Assembly: GCA_964408805.1 (NCBI GenBank)
Contig: CAYPAV010000001.1
Location: 606,024-670,023, forward strand
DNA length: 64,000 bases
Reading direction: 5' to 3'
From: an uncultured Rhodospirillaceae bacterium
GTDB lineage: Bacteria > Pseudomonadota > Alphaproteobacteria > UBA8366
Part shown: positions 47,920 through 55,763 of the stretch, one piece after another
How the letters are laid out: each line of letters starts with the position of its first letter
How positions within the stretch are numbered: position 1 is the first letter of the stretch
The notes under the pieces: model-generated
What the model saw: the letters and a program-made list of their open reading frames with translations, nothing else
Told to the model about the DNA's origin: nothing
Database searches by the model: none
Program-made: the position numbers and the translations under genes

Positions 47920-48759
47920 ATGACGGCAATACCCTTTACCAAGATGCACGGCGCCGGAAACGATTTCGTCATTATCGACAGGCGATCGTCGGAAGCGGCG
48001 ATTCCGGCCGATCGGTTGCGTGCGATCGCCGATCGGCGGCGCGGGGTTGGCTGCGACCAGATCGTCCTGATCGAGGCGCCGCGGAACGGGGCCGCCGATG
48101 TTCGTCTGGTTTTTCACAACGCCGACGGCGGCGAGGCAGGTGCTTGCGGCAATGGGACGCGCTGCGTGGCCGCCAAGCTGATGGCGGCGAATGGCACCGA
48201 CACGCTTTCGATCGAGACGGCGACGGGCCTTCTCGGGGCCGTTCGCGCGCGCGACGGCGCCGTTACGGTCGATATGGGCCCGGCCGGGAACGAATGGCGC
48301 GATGTGCCCCTCTCCGAGGCCGCGGATACGCTTCGGCTCGATGTCGGCGGCGGAGCGTTCGGAAATCCGGTCGCGGTCGGCATGGGCAATCCGCATTGCG
48401 TCTTCTTCGTCGAGGACGCGGAGGCCGTCGATCTCGATCGCTGGGGACCGGAATTCGAGAACCACGCCCTTTTCCCCGAGCGGACCAATGTCGAATTCGT
48501 AACCGTGCGGCCGGACGGCGGGCTTCGCATGCGGGTTTGGGAGCGCGGTGTCGGCGTAACGCTGGCCTGCGGCAGCGGCGTCTGTGCCGTCGTCGTCGCG
48601 GCCTCTCGTCGCGATCTGATAAGCGGCCGCGCCGCCGAGGTAGTCGCCGATGGCGGAATCCTCTCGGCCGAATGGCGCGCCGATGACGGGCATGTGATTC
48701 TCGGCGGACCGGTCGCGACCAGCTTTACCGGCGAACTGACGATGGCGGAGCCGTCATGA
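47920..48759 (+). CDS. dapF: Diaminopimelate epimerase
   Basis: 279 aa with MHGAGNDFVIID and catalytic Cys contexts CGNGTRC and CGSGVCA. Confidence 0.96.
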   Translation: MTAIPFTKMHGAGNDFVIIDRRSSEAAIPADRLRAIADRRRGVGCDQIVLIEAPRNGAADVRLVFHNADGGEAGACGNGTRCVAAKLMAANGTDTLSIETATGLLGAVRARDGAVTVDMGPAGNEWRDVPLSEAADTLRLDVGGGAFGNPVAVGMGNPHCVFFVEDAEAVDLDRWGPEFENHALFPERTNVEFVTVRPDGGLRMRVWERGVGVTLACGSGVCAVVVAASRRDLISGRAAEVVADGGILSAEWRADDGHVILGGPVATSFTGELTMAEPS

Positions 48760-50012
48760 ACAAGCCGTCCGAGATCATCACCTTCGGCTGCCGGCTCAAT
48801 TCTTATGAATCGGAAGTCATGCGCGGGCATGCGGCGGCCGCCGGCCATGCCGAGCTTGTCGTCGTCAACACCTGTGCGGTTACTCGCGAGGCCGAGCGTC
48901 AGGCACGCCAGGCAATTCGGCGGGCGCGGCGACAAAAGCCTGCGGCACGCATCGTGGTCACCGGCTGTGCGGCACAGATCGACCCGGCGGCTTATGCCGC
49001 CATGCCCGAGGTCGATCAGGTCCTCGGCAACGAGGAAAAATTGAACCCGGCGAGTTTCACCGACAGCGCGCCCGTCCTGGTCAACGATATCATGTCGGTC
49101 AACAACACCGCCGGTCATCTGATCCAGGGCTTCGAGGGCCGTGCGCGTGCTTTCGTGCAGGTCCAGCAGGGCTGCGACCACCGCTGTACCTTCTGCGTCA
49201 TCCCGTTTGGCCGCGGCAACAGCCGTTCGGTGCCGATCGGCGAAATCACGGCTCAAGTTACCGCCCTGGTCGAGAACGGCTATGGCGAAGTGGTGTTGAG
49301 CGGCGTCGATATCTCGTCCTACGGCGGCGATCTGCCGGGCCGGCCTAGCCTCGGTCAGATGGCCCGTCGCCTGCTGGCCCAGGTGTCGGGTTTGAAGCGG
49401 TTGCGCATTTCCTCGATCGACTGCATCGAGATTGACGACGATCTGAAGCGCCTTTTGGCCGAGGAACCGCGCCTGATGCCGCATCTGCATCTGTCGCTGC
49501 AATCGGGTGACGATCTGATCCTGAAGCGGATGAAACGCCGACATGACCGACAGGGAGCGATCCGGCTTTGCGCGGAGCTCCGCGACCTCAGGCCCGATAT
49601 CGTCTTCGGCGCCGATCTGATCGCCGGTTTTCCGACCGAAACCGAGGCCATGTTCCGGCAATCTTGCGACTTGATCGCGGAATGCGGGCTCACATGGCTG
49701 CATGTGTTTCCTTATTCGGAACGGCCGGGCACGCCGGCCGCACGAATGCCGCAAGTACCCATGGCCGAGCGCCGGGCCCGCGCCGGCGAACTTCGGCGGC
49801 TGGGTGAAGCGGCGGCCGCGCAATATTTCGAGCGTCGGGTCGGCACCGTCGAACGGGTTCTGGTCGAGGAGTCGGGACGTGGGCACAGCGAACACTTCGC
49901 ACCGGTCGCGCTCGATCGGCCGGTATCTCCGGGCCAAATCGTCGCTGCCCGAGTCGACGGCGTCGATGACGATCGATTGCGGGCGACCGTTCTCGAAAGG
50001 CGGGCGGCATGA
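48756..50012 (+). CDS. mtaB: tRNA (t6A37) methylthiotransferase MtaB (radical SAM)
   Basis: 418 aa with an N-terminal UPF0004 domain (FGCRLNSYE), the radical-SAM motif CDHRCTFC and a TRAM-like C-terminus. It overlaps dapF by 4 nt. Confidence 0.9.
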   Translation: MNKPSEIITFGCRLNSYESEVMRGHAAAAGHAELVVVNTCAVTREAERQARQAIRRARRQKPAARIVVTGCAAQIDPAAYAAMPEVDQVLGNEEKLNPASFTDSAPVLVNDIMSVNNTAGHLIQGFEGRARAFVQVQQGCDHRCTFCVIPFGRGNSRSVPIGEITAQVTALVENGYGEVVLSGVDISSYGGDLPGRPSLGQMARRLLAQVSGLKRLRISSIDCIEIDDDLKRLLAEEPRLMPHLHLSLQSGDDLILKRMKRRHDRQGAIRLCAELRDLRPDIVFGADLIAGFPTETEAMFRQSCDLIAECGLTWLHVFPYSERPGTPAARMPQVPMAERRARAGELRRLGEAAAAQYFERRVGTVERVLVEESGRGHSEHFAPVALDRPVSPGQIVAARVDGVDDDRLRATVLERRAA

Positions 50013-50941
50013 GCGAAGGCGGTTGGCTGCGCCGCCTTGCGACCGGCCTCAAGAAATCTTCGGCGCGGCTGGTAGACGGCGTCGCCCATGTTCTGACCCG
50101 AGGCCGGCTCGATGCCGAGGCGTTACAAGAACTCGAGGATTTGTTGATCACCGCTGATCTTGGCCCGGCGACGGCGGCGGCATTGGCGGGTAAGCTGGCC
50201 GAGCGTCGGATTGAACGTGACGTCGAGCCGGAGGAGATTCGCGGCTACCTCGCCGAGGATATCGCGGAAATTCTGGCGCCGGTGGCGCGGCCACTGGAAT
50301 TTAGACCCCGGCACCACCCCCATATCGTCCTCGTCGTCGGCGTCAACGGTACCGGCAAGACGACCACCATCGGCAAGCTGGCCCGCCGTTTCGTCGATGC
50401 CGGGCAACAAGTGATGCTGGCCGCGGGCGATACCTTCCGGGCGGCCGCCGTCGAGCAATTGTCGATCTGGGGCGAGCGGACCGGCTGTGCGGTGGTGGCA
50501 CGCGAGACGGGGGCCGATCCGGCGGGGCTCGTCTTCGACGCGATCGAGCAGGCGCGACATGACGGGGCCGACATTCTGCTGGTCGACACGGCCGGGCGGC
50601 TCCACAACAAGGCCGACCTGATGGCGGAGCTCCAGAAGATCCAGCGGGTCATGCAAAAGCTCGATGCGAGTGCGCCGCACGACGTGTTACTGGTCTTGGA
50701 TTCGACCACCGGCCAGAACGCCTTGGCGCAGGTCGAGACGTTCCGCGATTTGGTCGATGTGACCGGGCTGGTTTTGACCAAGCTCGACGGCACCGCGAAG
50801 GGCGGCGTTCTGGTGGCGCTGGCCGAAAAATTCGCCCTGCCGGTGCATGCGATCGGCGTCGGCGAGGGTGCGGAGGACCTACGCCCCTTTTCGGCCCGGG
50901 ACTTCGCCCGCAATCTGATGGGTTTCCCGCCCGAGGCTTAG
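50009..50941 (+). CDS. ftsY: Signal recognition particle receptor FtsY (short form)
   Basis: 310 aa with GTPase motifs GVNGTGKTTTIGKLA, DTAGR and TKLDG. It overlaps mtaB by 4 nt. Confidence 0.96.
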   Translation: MSEGGWLRRLATGLKKSSARLVDGVAHVLTRGRLDAEALQELEDLLITADLGPATAAALAGKLAERRIERDVEPEEIRGYLAEDIAEILAPVARPLEFRPRHHPHIVLVVGVNGTGKTTTIGKLARRFVDAGQQVMLAAGDTFRAAAVEQLSIWGERTGCAVVARETGADPAGLVFDAIEQARHDGADILLVDTAGRLHNKADLMAELQKIQRVMQKLDASAPHDVLLVLDSTTGQNALAQVETFRDLVDVTGLVLTKLDGTAKGGVLVALAEKFALPVHAIGVGEGAEDLRPFSARDFARNLMGFPPEA

Positions 50942-51015
50942 GGTCCTTCGTCCGGCGGCCGCCGATCTGGATTCCATTTACGGCGGCGACTAGAGTCGAT
51001 TTAGGGAGGCGCGCC

Positions 51016-51933
51016 TTGGCACGACGGAAACCGGAGATCGATGGAGAGACGGCGAAACGGGCGATTCTGGACTATTGCGCGCGAAAGGGCGCGCTGGCGG
51101 CCGGCGTCGCCGATCTAGACGCACTCAATCGCATCGCCCCAGAGGGACACCGTCCCGCCGATATCATGCCGCGCGTCAAATCGGTCATCTCGCTCGGCGT
51201 CGGCGGCCAGACCCAGGGGGCCTGGTCCGTGCCCGCGAAGGCGATGGGCTATTTCGGCAGCACCGAGACCCGCGCCTACGGGATCGCCTATGGCTGCGCT
51301 TTTTTCATCGAGAGCCGATTCCTGGCACGGGCCGTCTACTGTCCGCCCGATCTCGACAATGAAGCCGGACCGAGGGTACCGCTGCAAAGCCTGAAACTGC
51401 ATGCCGAACTGGCAGGCATCGGCGCGCGCTCGTTGGCCGGCGACATCCTCTTGCATCCGGAATTTGGATACATGTATTTCGCCTCGGTCTTCACTGAGTT
51501 GGAATTGCCGCCCGACGCGCCGATGGCGGAAAATCCCTGTCCACACGACTCCTGTGTCTCGATGTATCGCCGAACCGGTCAGACGCCCTGCATGAAGTTC
51601 TGTCCGGTGCAGTGCCTCAGCGGCGCGATCGACGAGGCGGGGCGGCAATCGGAGATGCACTACGACATGGCGAAATGCGCGGAACTCTCTGAACAATACG
51701 AAACCTTGCCGCTGATCCTGACCGAGGCGATGAAGGCCGAGACGTCCGTGGAGCGCGAGGCGGTGTTGATGGACCCGGACGCCTCGATGCTCTGGTACAA
51801 GATGTCGGTCGGCTCGGGCGGCCTGCTGGCCCAGTGTTTCGAATGCATGCGGGTCTGTCCGATCGCGACCCAGGCGCCGCTTGCCGATCCGATCCGCCGA
51901 GCCGAAGCGACGGCCGGTGAGGACGCGACATGA
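51016..51933 (+). CDS. Divergent Fe-S protein resembling the epoxyqueuosine reductase (QueG) / reductive dehalogenase fold
   Basis: 305 aa from TTG at 51016. The N-terminal and central blocks (LHAELAGIGARSLAGDILLHPEFGYMYFASVFTELELPPD) resemble QueG. The Cys motifs are CMKFCPVQC and CFECMRVCP. Confidence 0.55.
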   Translation: MARRKPEIDGETAKRAILDYCARKGALAAGVADLDALNRIAPEGHRPADIMPRVKSVISLGVGGQTQGAWSVPAKAMGYFGSTETRAYGIAYGCAFFIESRFLARAVYCPPDLDNEAGPRVPLQSLKLHAELAGIGARSLAGDILLHPEFGYMYFASVFTELELPPDAPMAENPCPHDSCVSMYRRTGQTPCMKFCPVQCLSGAIDEAGRQSEMHYDMAKCAELSEQYETLPLILTEAMKAETSVEREAVLMDPDASMLWYKMSVGSGGLLAQCFECMRVCPIATQAPLADPIRRAEATAGEDAT

Positions 51934-53180
51934 CTCGCGGGCTCTCAAGCGATCAGATCGGCGTCACCCAAGGCATGATCGAGAATTTCGGCGATCTTGT
52001 CTTCGAGCTGTCGCATAACGTCCAGCATCGGCGGGGAGATCCGATTCGTGAGCTCGATTTCGCCGCGATCGAGGCACAGCGGCCGGCGCTCGGGCTTGCG
52101 GATGGGGAAATCGCCCGGCGCCTCGGCCTGACGCCGGATCAAGTCACGCACATTCGCAATCTGGTGGAGCGCCGCCGCATCGTCGCCAACAACTATCAGC
52201 GGCTGCTCGGGCTCGGCGGCGGCCGGCGATTTCGCGCCGAGCAATTCGTCGCACCCGAGGCGCGCCCGGCCTTGAGCGAGACCGCATTGGCCCTCAGATC
52301 CGGGTTGCGGATCGATCCGGCACGCACCCGGCGTCACGTGGCGGCTGGGTGGTGGGGGGCAGACACACTGGCCGGTTGGCTTGCCGCGCGGGCAATCGAG
52401 CGACCGGAGGGGCCGGCACTCGATGCGGGCGGCGACGTGTTGGACTACGGCAACTTGACCCGCCGGGTCGAGAGACTTGCGGCCGGCCTGTTGTCGGCGG
52501 GGCATGGTCCGGGCGATCTCGTGCGGTTGCGTGCCGAGGACCGGGTCTCGGCCATTCTCGGCTATCTCGCACTGGCGCGGATCGGCGCCGTCACGGTGAT
52601 CTTGCCACCGCGCGAGGCGACGCCGGATTTTGCGGCACCTGTTGATCTGAAGACTCTGGCCGAGGGCAATCCGGCCGATCTTCCTCCCCCGTCGATGCTG
52701 GCCGCCGCCGACCCTCTCTATCTCCTCCGGACGGGGAGCGGCGATTTCGCGGTGCATACCGGGCATTCCGCGCTCGGCACGGCCTCGGCCGTGGCGGGCG
52801 TGATGGAGATCGAACCGGGAAGCCGCGTCGTCATCGATAGTGCCGCGGGTCTCGCCTTGCTGCATCTGGCCTTTGCGGTCGGTGCCACGGTGGTGTTGGA
52901 CGATGGCGAGGGATCGCGGCCGTCCTTCTGGGGATTGCCGGCACTTCCCCTAGCCCTCCTCGGTACGGCGGATGGGGCCGACGACCGCTTTGCCGGATCG
53001 CCCGCCCCGGGTGTCGAGGTTCGGCTGGATGGAAGCGGCCGGCTCGAACTTTCCGGTGCCCCGCTCGCCGCCGGCTTTTTCCCGCATCGGACTCCGGAAG
53101 CGATCGATGCGGCGGGCTGGCTCCGAACGAGACTCAGCGCCGAGATTGCCGAGGATGGTTTGGTGCGTCTGTCACCCTAG
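51930..53180 (+). CDS. Hypothetical fusion of an N-terminal HTH-like region and a shortened, degenerate adenylate-forming (AMP-binding-like) domain
   Basis: 416 aa. The ATGA overlap with the upstream gene suggests coupling. Residues from about 150 onward resemble the start of acyl-CoA synthetases (LDYGNLTRRVERLAAGLLSAGHGPGDLVRL...LARIGAVTVILPP). The P-loop position reads LLRTGSGDFAVHTGHS, not TSGTTGxPKG. Confidence 0.55.
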   Translation: MTRGLSSDQIGVTQGMIENFGDLVFELSHNVQHRRGDPIRELDFAAIEAQRPALGLADGEIARRLGLTPDQVTHIRNLVERRRIVANNYQRLLGLGGGRRFRAEQFVAPEARPALSETALALRSGLRIDPARTRRHVAAGWWGADTLAGWLAARAIERPEGPALDAGGDVLDYGNLTRRVERLAAGLLSAGHGPGDLVRLRAEDRVSAILGYLALARIGAVTVILPPREATPDFAAPVDLKTLAEGNPADLPPPSMLAAADPLYLLRTGSGDFAVHTGHSALGTASAVAGVMEIEPGSRVVIDSAAGLALLHLAFAVGATVVLDDGEGSRPSFWGLPALPLALLGTADGADDRFAGSPAPGVEVRLDGSGRLELSGAPLAAGFFPHRTPEAIDAAGWLRTRLSAEIAEDGLVRLSP

Positions 53181-53325
53181 CGCTGCGTTTCGTTGAGCGG
53201 CCAAGACGGGTTCACAGTTCGTTAAGAACCTCGGCATAGGATAGCTATAGGGGATATTCGTATCGTTCCAGCAGTCTGCAATCGTCACGTGGTGGACGTC
53301 AGTGAAGCAAAATCGGGGTTAAGGA

Positions 53326-53862
53326 ATGGAAGTCGACGACAATGAGAAGCTCCTGCGCGAGGTCGGGAACCTGGTCAACTACACGAATAGACTGCGCCAG
53401 GAAATCGCCGGGATCGTCCGCCGCAAGGATGACCAGACGGCGTTCGAAAGCATGTCGAGCCAGCTCGACGAAATCGTCTCAGCGACATCGAATGCGACCC
53501 ATACGATCCTGGAGAGCATCGAGACGATCGAATCCGCGGCCGACCACCTCCGCATGCATCCGGACGATGAGGGCGTCGATGAACAATGCGAGCGCATCTC
53601 GGCCATGACGATGCAGGCGATGGAGGCCTGCAGTTTCCAGGACATTACCGGTCAGCGAGTCACCAAGATCGTCAGTTCCCTCCGCTTCATCGAGGAGCAC
53701 GTCGACGCGATGGCGGAAATATGGGGCAAGGAAGCGATCGACTCGCTTAGTTCCGAACTTGCACCGGTCGAGGAGAAGGGGGACGACGGCGTGCCGCTCG
53801 AGGGTCCGGCGATGCCCGGTGAAGCCATTTCCCAGGCCGATATCGACGCTTTGTTCGATTAG
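53326..53862 (+). CDS. CheZ-like protein phosphatase
   Basis: 178 aa. The active-site motif FQDITGQ gives a DxxxQ pair (Asp106/Gln110). The product is a predicted long helical protein with an acidic C-terminal peptide SQADIDALFD, like the CheY-binding tail of CheZ. Confidence 0.7.
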   Translation: MEVDDNEKLLREVGNLVNYTNRLRQEIAGIVRRKDDQTAFESMSSQLDEIVSATSNATHTILESIETIESAADHLRMHPDDEGVDEQCERISAMTMQAMEACSFQDITGQRVTKIVSSLRFIEEHVDAMAEIWGKEAIDSLSSELAPVEEKGDDGVPLEGPAMPGEAISQADIDALFD

Positions 53863-54018
53863 TCCCTTCGTTGATAGACGGATTCCCGTCCCGAAATTTT
53901 TCGATCTAGCGGGAACAATATTCCATTAGGTCCACTTCTTGTGACCGCCGGCCGGTATAAGTTATCGGAGGAACAACGCGGTGTGGGAATCGATTGGAAT
54001 TTTGAAGGAGATGGCATC

Positions 54019-54588
54019 ATGGACGTAGCGGAATTGGTCGCTCGGTTTTCGGCGGCGACGGCGGCGCCCGAGGAGGAAGCCTCCTACAAGGCGGCGGTCG
54101 CGGTGATGAACGAACTGAAAGACGATCTCGATGGCGTGGCGGGCGCACTCTCCTACCTGACGGGATCGGGCGGCAATGCGCTGCAGGCCTTCTACAGGGC
54201 GCCGAAGCTCAGCCTGCTCAAGGTCAGGTTTCCCAACGGCCGCCGCACGCCGCCGCACGATCACGGCACCTGGGCGGCGATCCTCGTCTTGAAGGGATCG
54301 GAAAAAAACACCGTCTACAAGCGAAACGATGACGGATCGCTGACCTATGAGCGCTCGGTCGATTTGGGCCAGGGCGACATCGTTTTCATGCCGTCGGGTG
54401 CCGTGCACGTGGCCGAATGCACCAGCGATGACGCCGCCATCGGCCTGCACGTATACGGCGGCAACGTGCTCGGCCTCGAACGCCACATGTGGGACCCGGA
54501 TACGCTGGCGGAACACACGCTCGACTGGTCAAAATACGAAGGGCTGGCGCAACGCGCCTCGGCCGCCAGCGCGGCGCCGCTGACCTAA
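54019..54588 (+). CDS. 3-His cupin, cysteine-dioxygenase-type (double-stranded beta-helix metalloenzyme)
   Basis: Internal ATG at 54019 of ORF 53941..54588, preceded by GAAGGAGA. The metal ligand pattern is PPHDH...GAVHV. Confidence 0.65.
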   Translation: MDVAELVARFSAATAAPEEEASYKAAVAVMNELKDDLDGVAGALSYLTGSGGNALQAFYRAPKLSLLKVRFPNGRRTPPHDHGTWAAILVLKGSEKNTVYKRNDDGSLTYERSVDLGQGDIVFMPSGAVHVAECTSDDAAIGLHVYGGNVLGLERHMWDPDTLAEHTLDWSKYEGLAQRASAASAAPLT

Positions 54589-54620
54589 TAGCGGAGTCGC
54601 CGAGAGCGAGACCGAACGGA

Positions 54621-55763
54621 ATGGATTTCGAACTGTCGGAAGAACAACGGCTGGCGGTCGATGGCTGGCGCGGTGTCCTCGAACGGGAGTTTCGCCCGGT
54701 CATCACCGAGTATCTGGATGGGTCGATCCCCAAGGACGTGACCCACCGATTGCTGCGGATCGGCGCCGAATACGGCATGTGTTGCGCAGAGGTGCCGGAG
54801 GCGGATGGCGGTCTCGGTCTCGATATTCTGACCAGCGGTCTCATTAGCGAGGAATTGTCTCGCGTCTCCCCCGATCTCGCCGGGACCGGTTTCCTGACCC
54901 AGGGTGTTGCGTTGAAGATCGCGCGGGGCGGCTCGCCCGAATTGAAGGCGCGCTACCTGCCGGGGCTGCTCTCGGGCGACTTGATCGGCAGTTCGGCCGT
55001 TACGGAGCCGGACGCGGGATCGCATGTTCGCGGCATCAAGACGCGGGCGGTGCGCGACGGCGAAAATTATCGCCTGACCGGCGAGAAGATGTTCAGCTCG
55101 AACATCACCGTCTCCGACCTCGCCCTCATTCTCGCCCGCACGGGCGAGGACGAATTCACGGTCTTCCTGGTCGATCGCGAGGAACACGGCTACGAGACCC
55201 GCGCAATCTCCACGCTGGGCCTCAGCGGCTGGTCCATGGGGCAGGTCGTCCTGGACGACGTCGTGGTGCCGGCGGCAAACGCCATCGGCGGGATCGGCGG
55301 GGGCCTCCGCGAGACCATGAATGGTTTCGAGCGCTCGCGCTGTTTCGTCTCGACGCTGTCACTCGGCATTTCCCAGGCCGCCCTCGACGACAGCATCTCC
55401 TATGCCAAGCAACGCACCAGCTTCGGCAAACCGATCGGCGCCCACCAACTGATCCAGGGATTGATTGCGGAGATGGCGACCGAACTCGACGCGGCGCGTC
55501 TCCTGGTCTATCGCGGCCTCAAGCTGCTGAATTCCGAACACCCCAGCCCGGTCGAGACCAGTATGTGCAAATACTTCGCGACGGAAGCCGCGACGCGTAT
55601 CACGTCGAAGGCGATCCAAGTGCACGGGGCTTTCGGCATCACCAAGGAGTTCCCGGTCGAACGGCACTTCCGGAACGCCCGCATGCTCACCATCCCCGAT
55701 GGCACGACGCAGATCAATCAGCTGATCATCGCGCGAAATCTGCTTGGGCTTTCGGCGTTTTAG
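54621..55763 (+). CDS. Acyl-CoA dehydrogenase superfamily protein (atypical catalytic-base position)
   Basis: Internal ATG at 54621 of ORF 54489..55763. The product is 380 aa, with N-terminus MDFELSEEQ and a typical ACAD pattern. The usual C-terminal IYEGT motif reads IPDGT, with the Asp codon at 55698-55700. Confidence 0.85.
   Translation: MDFELSEEQRLAVDGWRGVLEREFRPVITEYLDGSIPKDVTHRLLRIGAEYGMCCAEVPEADGGLGLDILTSGLISEELSRVSPDLAGTGFLTQGVALKIARGGSPELKARYLPGLLSGDLIGSSAVTEPDAGSHVRGIKTRAVRDGENYRLTGEKMFSSNITVSDLALILARTGEDEFTVFLVDREEHGYETRAISTLGLSGWSMGQVVLDDVVVPAANAIGGIGGGLRETMNGFERSRCFVSTLSLGISQAALDDSISYAKQRTSFGKPIGAHQLIQGLIAEMATELDAARLLVYRGLKLLNSEHPSPVETSMCKYFATEAATRITSKAIQVHGAFGITKEFPVERHFRNARMLTIPDGTTQINQLIIARNLLGLSAF

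Follow-up and report, generated by a model that had tools for sequence, protein, structure and literature searches.

A QueG- and reductive dehalogenase-like protein paired with a putative docking subunit that carries a degenerate ANL ligase in an uncultured Rhodospirillaceae bacterium

We analyzed a 64,000-nucleotide stretch of DNA (the window) from an uncultured Rhodospirillaceae bacterium (GenBank assembly GCA_964408805.1, contig CAYPAV010000001.1), focusing on two overlapping open reading frames (ORFs) at its positions 51016 to 53180. The upstream one, ORF1, resembles in its predicted fold the epoxyqueuosine reductase QueG and the reductive dehalogenases (RdhA), and the downstream one, ORF2, joins a conserved N-terminal domain of about 140 amino acids (the N-domain) to the shrunken remnant of a ligase of the ANL type. 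We computed folds, motif losses, conservation of neighbors, purifying selection, repeated decay and a predicted interface, and together these make it reasonably probable, though well short of certain, that the two proteins form a two-subunit B12/Fe-S reductase in which ORF2, at this locus, is a noncatalytic docking or scaffold subunit. The genes had been singled out in an earlier reading made from the sequence alone (the sequence-only reading) as a QueG-like Fe-S protein coupled to a degenerate adenylation-domain pseudoenzyme with a helix-turn-helix (HTH)-like N terminus; the strings that it quoted (CMKFCPVQC, CFECMRVCP, GEIARRLGLTPDQVTHIRNLVERRR, LLRTGSGDFAVHTGHS and GWLRTRL) are all present in the translations, and the ATGA overlap that it saw between the two genes was confirmed in the DNA.

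By sequence, ORF1 stays below the cut-offs of the families that it resembles. Pfam returned Fer4 matches only, all subthreshold, and no match to the Dehalogenase family (PF13486) at E values up to 0.1; among the NCBIfam models, QueG (TIGR00276) scored 25.1 bits over residues 130 to 203 only, against a cut-off of 200, and RdhA (TIGR02486) scored 14.3 bits against a cut-off of 160. A profile of ORF1 had QueG as its sole match among the PDB sequences (E = 0.038), and in the alignment to the QueG hidden Markov model (HMM) the invariant K127 of ORF1 falls near the position of the catalytic QueG residue Arg141, within loops that are unreliably aligned and that assign no counterparts to the catalytic Asp134 and His106. 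A word-index search retrieved 731 relatives of ORF1; those among the matches listed (n = 119) are all of about 300 amino acids, 74 to 83% identical and without a Pfam domain, some of them being labeled QueG by JGI and two coming from alpha-/gammaproteobacterial metagenome-assembled genomes. Cysteines 109, 175, 180, 192, 196, 200, 221, 274, 277 and 281 are invariant in all 34 aligned sequences (identity down to 52%). They give the motif C274xxC277xxxC281P and an atypical first motif, C175x4C180x11C192x3C196P, so the unusual cysteine spacing reported earlier is shared by every homolog in the alignment.

When the AlphaFold2 (AF2) model of ORF1 was compared with known structures, the highest-scoring match by VIA was QueG (Z 17.1, root mean square deviation 4.4, 224 aligned residues, ∼20% identity; Foldseek E = 7e-7), with residues 9 to 297 of the model aligning to residues 2 to 259 of the QueG chain. 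PceA (Z 15.3; E = 4.9e-8), NpRdhA (Z 14.5; E = 9e-6), the reductive dehalogenase complex 8q4h (Z 14.3), MMACHC (Z 10.3; E = 8e-4) and nitroreductases (Z ∼6) followed. Both methods thus agree with the QueG/reductive dehalogenase fold first proposed for this protein, and according to the model ORF1 has the fold of the QueG/RdhA/MMACHC superfamily, a cobalamin-binding core plus a ferredoxin domain. By analogy with these proteins, it most likely binds a corrinoid and two [4Fe-4S] clusters. ORF1 is a separate, uncharacterized branch of this superfamily. It is not QueG, since it has no tRNA-binding domain and since a true QueG is encoded elsewhere in the genome, on a different contig (441.6 bits); a cobyric acid synthase CobQ (456 bits) is also present in the genome.

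The ligase-like part of ORF2 measures 276 amino acids (residues 141 to 416), close to the 265 or so estimated earlier. Within it, the Pfam AMP-binding domain is recognized at residues 154 to 228 only (44.7 bits, cut-off 29.9), and PF13193 gives no match. A homolog search found 36 close relatives of ORF2, among them two near copies of 421 amino acids (66 to 69% identity), further short proteins of 423 to 487 amino acids and many of ∼650 amino acids that contain PF00501 plus PF13193 and have the first ∼228 residues in common with ORF2, at ∼54% identity. These long relatives are complete adenylating enzymes, with the motifs TSGTxxxPK, WGMTE, GWFRTGD and GRxKD and a C-terminal subdomain of ∼92 amino acids. 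Compared with them, ORF2 has LLRTGSGDFA instead of YTSGTTSAPK at the site of the P-loop (A3, [ST][ST]G[ST]xGxPK), and GWLRTRL instead of GWFRTGD at the A7 site, where the Asp is gone. None of its residues align to residues 556 to 650 of P0011, meaning that the hinge and the whole C-terminal subdomain, including the A10 Lys, are missing; ORF2 ends once the final strands of the N-terminal subdomain are complete. Internally, it has lost ∼46 residues between A2 and A3, and its core has shrunk from 141 to 72 residues (∼69 lost). The listed degenerate relatives likewise retain 0 to 4 aligned residues of the C-terminal subdomain, or 7 in one case.

Adenylation by ANL enzymes needs the P-loop and the C-terminal Lys, and the A7 Asp binds ribose. 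Given that the P-loop, the A7 Asp and the C-terminal subdomain are missing in comparison with the intact ∼650-amino-acid relatives, ORF2 is, judging by these motifs, very probably dead in adenylation, as the sequence-only reading had supposed. What remains is predicted to be well folded (AF2 predicted local distance difference test score [pLDDT] 78.5, predicted TM-score [pTM] 0.81), and Foldseek matched it to PchD (7tz4, E = 8.7e-16), feruloyl-CoA synthetase (8wev, E = 1.9e-15) and MenE, with E values of 9e-16 to 2e-14 and TM-scores of ∼0.52 to 0.56. ORF2 therefore fails three of the four defining ANL features and keeps the fold of the N-terminal subdomain. Profile searches thus left neither protein in a known family with intact motifs, ORF1 scoring below the QueG and RdhA cut-offs and ORF2 having lost its motifs.

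To see how the pair is conserved, we used a class sample of 300 other genomes, in which strong matches to ORF1 (E < 1e-100) occur at 13 places in 10 genomes. A gene with the N-domain lies directly 3′ of ORF1 on the same strand at 15 of 15 loci, namely, the 12 fetched class loci and the copies in G243, G308 and G337, of which the latter two come from 40 relatives searched; the two genes are thus conserved neighbors. The two genes of the G308 copy also overlap, and the spacing between the two genes ranges from −4 to +30 nucleotides at the other loci. The partner itself differs in form from locus to locus: it is an intact long ligase at 10 loci (L031 to L035, L037 to L040 and, as far as fetched, L007), a long ligase with a frameshifted N-domain at one (L063), a degenerate ligase at three loci besides the window (L041, L042 and L062) and, at one locus (L036), a stand-alone N-domain of 105 amino acids followed by an unrelated gene.

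Locus L036 (L036:9360-10591, in G261:C28), a paralogous cassette in which the N-domain ORF that follows ORF1 stops just after LGSGKRYR, is the extreme end of the ligase-loss series; it shows that a ligase body in cis is not required by the reductase. Another cassette of this genome (L042) has a degenerate partner of 515 amino acids. At L063 (L063:283-2231, in G337:C68), the long partner is 52% identical to P0011 over residues 25 to 652, and the frameshift near residues 25 to 49 of its N-domain reflects either an error in sequencing or a recently formed pseudogene. A fusion of ORF1 to ORF2 in G073, suggested by an 850-amino-acid open frame, was rejected, the two matches lying in different frames.

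Pfam was run on 64 neighbors of 11 of the 12 fetched loci (none from L036 or L042) and on 7 ORFs around the G308 copy, and no gene was found that the loci have in common beyond the pair, for which reason a wider conserved operon was rejected. Ligases of the PaaK-like or another type, RidA and TetR occur among these neighbors at scattered loci only. Synteny with the nearest relative was rejected as well, since the G308 copy, from the same family and another genus, lies in a different context (radA, cvpA, purF and an SDR). Two loci contain related genes close by. At L037 (L037:14150-17498, in G164), a second module, ∼4 kb away from the cassette, combines a distant ORF1 paralog (340 amino acids, 26 to 29% identity) with a 340-amino-acid protein without a Pfam family and a PaaK-like ligase of 437 amino acids. 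At L033 (L033:6286-7545, in G073), a 420-amino-acid protein with Dehalogenase and Fer4_16 domains, of the conventional RdhA type, lies 1.6 kb upstream of the cassette, beside an MTHFR-like gene.

We calculated the nonsynonymous-to-synonymous substitution rate ratio (dN/dS) by the Nei-Gojobori method for the window versus the G308 copy, and obtained 0.10 for ORF1 (88% amino acid identity), 0.16 for the N-domain (78%), 0.28 for ORF2 residues 141 to 228 (61%) and 0.31 for residues 229 to 416 (61%). The open frame and its length are maintained in the window, in P0002, in P0003 and in G308 (66 to 69% identity). Given the dN/dS of ∼0.3, the recurrence of the same sequence in independent seawater assemblies and the repeated decay in the family (both described below), the dead ligase is not a decaying pseudogene and is kept by selection.

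For the history of this decay, 75 ORF2 homologs of at least 330 amino acids were classed by their motifs, degenerate forms being those with no P-loop, no C-terminal subdomain, a shortened core and the GW region present; 26 were intact, 33 degenerate and 16 unclear. On a tree built from the first 228 residues, with 74 rows because one row had too little of this region, the degenerate forms are spread over at least four clades, and the clade of the window (P0001 to P0003) is nested among intact forms. The tree was made in a quick search mode, and one of its rows is long-branched. An approximately unbiased (AU) test rejected a single clade of all degenerate forms (log-likelihood difference 46.7, P = 0.0038). 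Ligase decay has occurred several times in this family.

This raises the question of whether residues 141 to 416 have a role of their own at all, since only the N-domain could matter, the remnant being a relic on its way out. Such a view fits the N-domain kept alone at L036, the loss of all catalytic motifs, and the remnants' variable length (394 to 506 amino acids) and fast evolution (61% identity versus 88% for ORF1 between the window genome, G000, and G308). However, dN/dS in this part is well below 1, frame and length are kept in the four copies named above, the listed degenerate forms are without a C-terminal subdomain altogether, and the remnant is predicted to be compactly folded. On balance, we consider a mere relic unlikely, if still a serious competitor.

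The N-domain is strongly conserved in all aligned ORF2 relatives. It contains invariant strand residues (N30, Q32, R34, G36, D37 and R40), a weakly HTH-like trio of helices (residues 44 to 84) and an Arg/Gly-rich segment (residues 82 to 103). It has no Pfam family, it was found in only 104 clusters of the 1.84 billion representatives searched, and a search of the ESM Atlas gave no usable match to it. The match to the N-domain starts within the first 10 residues for most of the matches listed. In two metagenome proteins, P0170 (238 amino acids) and P0198 (266 amino acids), the N-domain is joined, in place of a ligase, to a GNAT acetyltransferase or to a piece of a DAHP synthase; whether genuine fusions of another kind or chimeras of gene calling, both readings are plausible for these two.

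The complex, whose modeling the sequence-only reading had suggested, was predicted from ORF1 and ORF2 residues 1 to 140, each with its own alignment. Three runs gave ipSAE values of 0.84, 0.84 and 0.85, versus 0.00 for the best of 3 controls, with at least 87% of contacts in common and a partner pLDDT of at least 74; among solved complexes, 116 of 157 attain the tool's mark, as against 2 of 215 among mismatched pairs, and these counts are only roughly valid here because author-made alignments were used. In the predicted interface, the N-domain strand S28 to R40 pairs with ORF1 residues 210 to 219, and the Arg/Gly-rich stretch 83 to 103 is also used. On the ORF1 side, residues 71 to 78, 115 to 121, 194 to 199 and 274 to 280 take part; these are the loops left disordered when ORF1 is modeled alone and the stretches flanking the two Fe-S motifs. 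The interface is enriched in conserved N-domain positions (16 of 30, versus 43 interface residues among all 140; one-sided Fisher P = 0.003), and the charges of the two partners are complementary, with an isoelectric point (pI) of 5.1 for ORF1 and 11.2 for the N-domain. The modeling supports a docking of the N-domain on ORF1.

We infer corrinoid and Fe-S cluster binding, physical binding of the two proteins, a small-molecule substrate and a direction from ligase to reductase. In this mechanism, ORF1 would be the catalytic subunit, a minimal cytosolic member of its superfamily that reduces a small organic substrate. ORF2 would grip it through the basic N-domain, wrapped beside the Fe-S motifs, and would thereby order loops that are poorly defined in ORF1 alone, making the N-domain a docking partner that ORF1 cannot do without and that perhaps covers the active site like a lid. 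The ancestral ligase would have activated a carboxylic acid and passed it to the reductase, which is probable because the docking domain carries an active aryl/alkyl-acid adenylating ligase in most relatives. In the window, the ligase would be a compactly folded, dead remnant serving as a structural or scaffold part, a role that is better supported than that of a ligand sensor. Activation would then either not be needed here or come in trans from one of ∼40 other ANL-type matches in the genome: the intact long-form ligase has 41 matches there (∼40 ANL paralogs), and the N-domain occurs on ORF2 only. An intact ligase without the N-domain, containing AMP-binding and AMP-binding_C, adjoins two of the four degenerate loci (L042:5957-7504, minus strand; L041:11680-13239, plus strand), and these ligases may replace the lost activity in trans.

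Several points weigh against this reading. No ligase adjoins the window or the G308 copy, so that the supply in trans is a guess. The intact long-form ligases (3 proteins) reach no NCBIfam cut-off, their best scores being to generic medium-chain, cyclohexanecarboxylate and DHB-type models, and Pfam searches of the gene neighborhoods revealed no consistent pathway. The AF2 model of ORF1 is only moderate (pLDDT 70, pTM 0.68, four segments below 50), and the score of the complex is the model's own confidence. The dN/dS values come from a single pair with a dS of 0.7 to 0.99 across the regions, near saturation. Finally, the AU test was run after the tree had been seen, though the motif classes had been set beforehand, and truncation during gene calling may account for some of the degenerate metagenome proteins, with 16 of the 75 homologs unclassified.

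A more radical version would take ORF1 plus the 140-amino-acid N-domain as the functional unit, a new class of heterodimeric B12/Fe-S reductase whose partner domain would either complete the active site or control entry of the substrate, and whose ligase would be dispensable, having been inactivated or discarded at least four times. We find this doubtful, somewhat more so than the relic view. If it were true, the substrate need not be an acyl-adenylate or a CoA thioester; even a macromolecule such as a nucleic acid is conceivable because of the extreme conservation of ORF1, its likeness to QueG and its Arg-rich, HTH-like partner.

Alternatively, ORF1 could be regarded as a QueG-like reductase that modifies tRNA or another nucleic acid, with the N-domain replacing the HEAT-like RNA-binding domain. 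QueG is indeed the best structural match by Z (17.1 versus 15.3 for PceA), ORF1 is unusually conserved (74 to 83% identity in the 119 relatives listed, and the lowest dN/dS of the cassette), and it is without a substrate-recognition domain of its own, next to a partner that is Arg-rich and HTH-like. However, a true QueG is already encoded in the genome, the cassette is sporadic (strong matches in 10 of the 300 class genomes), the basic residues of the N-domain are predicted to touch ORF1, and the partner is ancestrally fused to an acid-CoA-ligase-type enzyme, for which we know of no role in RNA base reduction. A tRNA-modifying role thus seems improbable.

The HTH-like appearance of the N-domain also invites a regulatory explanation, in which ORF2 would sit on DNA through this domain, sense a carboxylic acid with its dead ligase core and control ORF1 or other genes. 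A profile of 23 N-domains weakly matches Cro/C1-type HTH proteins over residues 45 to 77, the best PDB match being the designed DNA binder DBP48 (E = 0.012), followed by the 434 repressor (E = 0.43 to 1.3). Subthreshold HTH_3 or HTH_23 matches were found in 5 to 6 of the 23 members (HTH_3 in 5, best E = 0.0027), and the domain is very basic. The likeness noted in the sequence-only reading is thus, at the level of sequence, real but faint: it stays below all Pfam cut-offs, the N-domain of the window itself matches no HTH family (Sigma70_r3, E = 0.19, and DUF7645, E = 0.24, both far below cut-offs), and in the model the domain packs on ORF1 and not on DNA. Since the would-be recognition helix (residues 69 to 84) and the basic stretch sit in the predicted interface with ORF1, the domain is carried by an active enzyme in most relatives and translational coupling is more in keeping with a stoichiometric complex than with a regulator and the gene that it controls, we regard a regulator as very improbable, marginally more so than a tRNA-modifying reductase.

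The layout of the cassette is summarized in Table 1. The N terminus chosen for ORF1 (MARRKPEID) lines up with the starts of its homologs in the alignment. Contigs from two other seawater studies match the region of the short ORF2 with 0 differences and no indels over 51824 to 52959 and 52137 to 53400, and since these independent contigs reproduce it exactly, the short ORF2 is no assembly error. The stretch 51016 to 53180 is present nearly complete (83 to 100% of sampled words) in seawater or marine metagenomes of five studies (P1 to P5, 2019 to 2023; runs X1 to X14), suggesting that the organism is a recurrent marine planktonic bacterium. Diverged relatives of ORF1 occur on other contigs of the same metagenome runs, and none of the 18 runs listed is an RNA data set with this stretch.

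Table 1. Features of the ORF1-ORF2 cassette (positions in the window)
Feature	Position	Strand	Description
Shine-Dalgarno-like AGGGAGG	51003..51009	+	6 nucleotides 5′ of the ORF1 TTG; read in the DNA
ORF1	51016..51933	+	TTG start, 305 amino acids; minimal QueG/RdhA-fold protein, putative cobalamin and two [4Fe-4S] sites
ORF2	51930..53180	+	ATG start, 416 amino acids; N-domain plus shrunken ANL remnant
ATGA overlap	51930..51933	+	ORF2 start and ORF1 stop; read in the DNA
ORF2 residues 1-140 (N-domain)	51930..52349	+	Conserved, basic (pI 11.2); predicted docking domain for ORF1
ORF2 residues 141-416 (ligase remnant)	52350..53180	+	Shrunken ANL N-terminal subdomain; under purifying selection

The genes around the pair are housekeeping or unrelated. 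In order, and as named from their translations, they are ffh (minus strand), a small HTH_3 protein, dapF, mtaB, ftsY, the pair itself, a CheZ-like protein, a cupin and an acyl-CoA dehydrogenase; Pfam was run on ftsY and on the HTH, CheZ-like and cupin proteins. dapF, mtaB and ftsY (47920 to 50941, plus strand) form a string of genes with 4-nucleotide overlaps at 48756 to 48759 and 50009 to 50012, which stops 75 nucleotides upstream of ORF1, and the cassette may be expressed by read-through from this housekeeping operon. Between 50700 and 53500, 0 promoter-like and 2 terminator-like sites were found, not above shuffled sequences. Downstream, a protein of 178 amino acids (53326 to 53862, plus strand) matches CheZ over the latter's C-terminal half alone (Pfam, 36.2 bits, cut-off 30.7) and lies far below the NCBIfam cut-off, with no other che gene recognized among the ORFs inspected. 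The cupin protein (Cupin_2, 28.5 bits; 53941 to 54588, plus strand) overlaps by 100 nucleotides with the longest frame of the acyl-CoA dehydrogenase-like ORF (54489 to 55763, plus strand), whose true start is probably further downstream, near MDFELSEEQ.

To our knowledge, the QueG/RdhA/MMACHC superfamily has only a few known reaction types, namely, dehalogenation, epoxide reduction and B12 processing. The ORF1 family occurs widely among Proteobacteria of the sea and the soil (731 relatives), is very strongly conserved and is tied to an obligate partner, and for these reasons, and because we found no published function for it, it is a candidate for new B12 chemistry. RdhA proteins (PceA, 4ur3 and 4uqu; 8q4h; NpRdhA, 4ras and 6zy1) have the same fold as ORF1, which is cytosolic like NpRdhA, and in them, too, the second Fe-S motif is a short one (CxxCxxxCP type). 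However, they measure 440 to 700 amino acids versus 305 for ORF1, which scores below the cut-offs of their profiles and whose N terminus, MARRKPEIDGETAK, has no hydrophobic signal stretch, and which has no vestigial second B12 domain. The partner of ORF1 is a docking domain borne by a ligase, and is not RdhB or a reductase module. A reduction of carbon-halogen bonds, or a bound corrinoid, is suggested for ORF1 by its likeness to RdhA, that is, by similarity of predicted fold.

QueG (5d08, 5d0a and 5t8y from B. subtilis, 5d6s from S. thermophilus; TIGR00276) has the cobalamin core and the ferredoxin-like domain in common with ORF1, with a weak collinear sequence match. In the available part of its structural description, QueG carries a C-terminal HEAT-like tRNA-binding domain spanning Leu257 to Leu385 and is a monomer without a partner subunit (PMC5175355), whereas ORF1, ending at residue 305, has no room for such a domain and comes with ORF2. 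Small cytosolic RdhA-like proteins have been described (PMC12219181), in a report where, supplements aside, the terms “CoA ligase,” “acyl-CoA” and “synthetase” each occur 0 times. More broadly, full-text searches and term look-ups in these two papers, supplements aside, brought up no published account in which an RdhA/QueG-like protein is paired with a docking domain carried on a ligase, in line with the earlier impression that no such system had been described.

On the ORF2 side, the ANL enzymes (PchD/EntE/CahJ, feruloyl-CoA synthetase, MenE) have in common with residues 141 to 416 the fold of the N-terminal subdomain, the first 75 residues of which match Pfam AMP-binding. Compared with them, ORF2 is without the A3 P-loop, the A7 Asp, the A8 hinge and the C-terminal subdomain with its A10 Lys, its core is ∼145 residues shorter, and it has an extra N-domain of 140 amino acids, so that, on motif evidence, it is an apparently clear example of an ANL enzyme that became a pseudoenzyme subunit and has been maintained as such. 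Also among the closest systems is the ligase-intact cassette (L031 to L035 and L037 to L040), which has the same ORF1 family (64 to 79% identity), the same N-domain (45 to 61%), the same gene order and the same tight coupling; its partners are of ∼650 amino acids with all adenylation motifs and AMP-binding_C, whereas the partner in the window is a pseudoenzyme of 416 amino acids. What is new here is the pseudoenzyme form, the evidence of selection on it and the recurrent ligase decay, down to a partner that consists of the N-domain only. The family thus offers a natural experiment, in which the ligase half was repeatedly inactivated while docking domain and reductase stayed under strong selection, revealing which parts are essential and providing, with its ligase-intact and degenerate cassettes, matched active and dead pairs for biochemistry.

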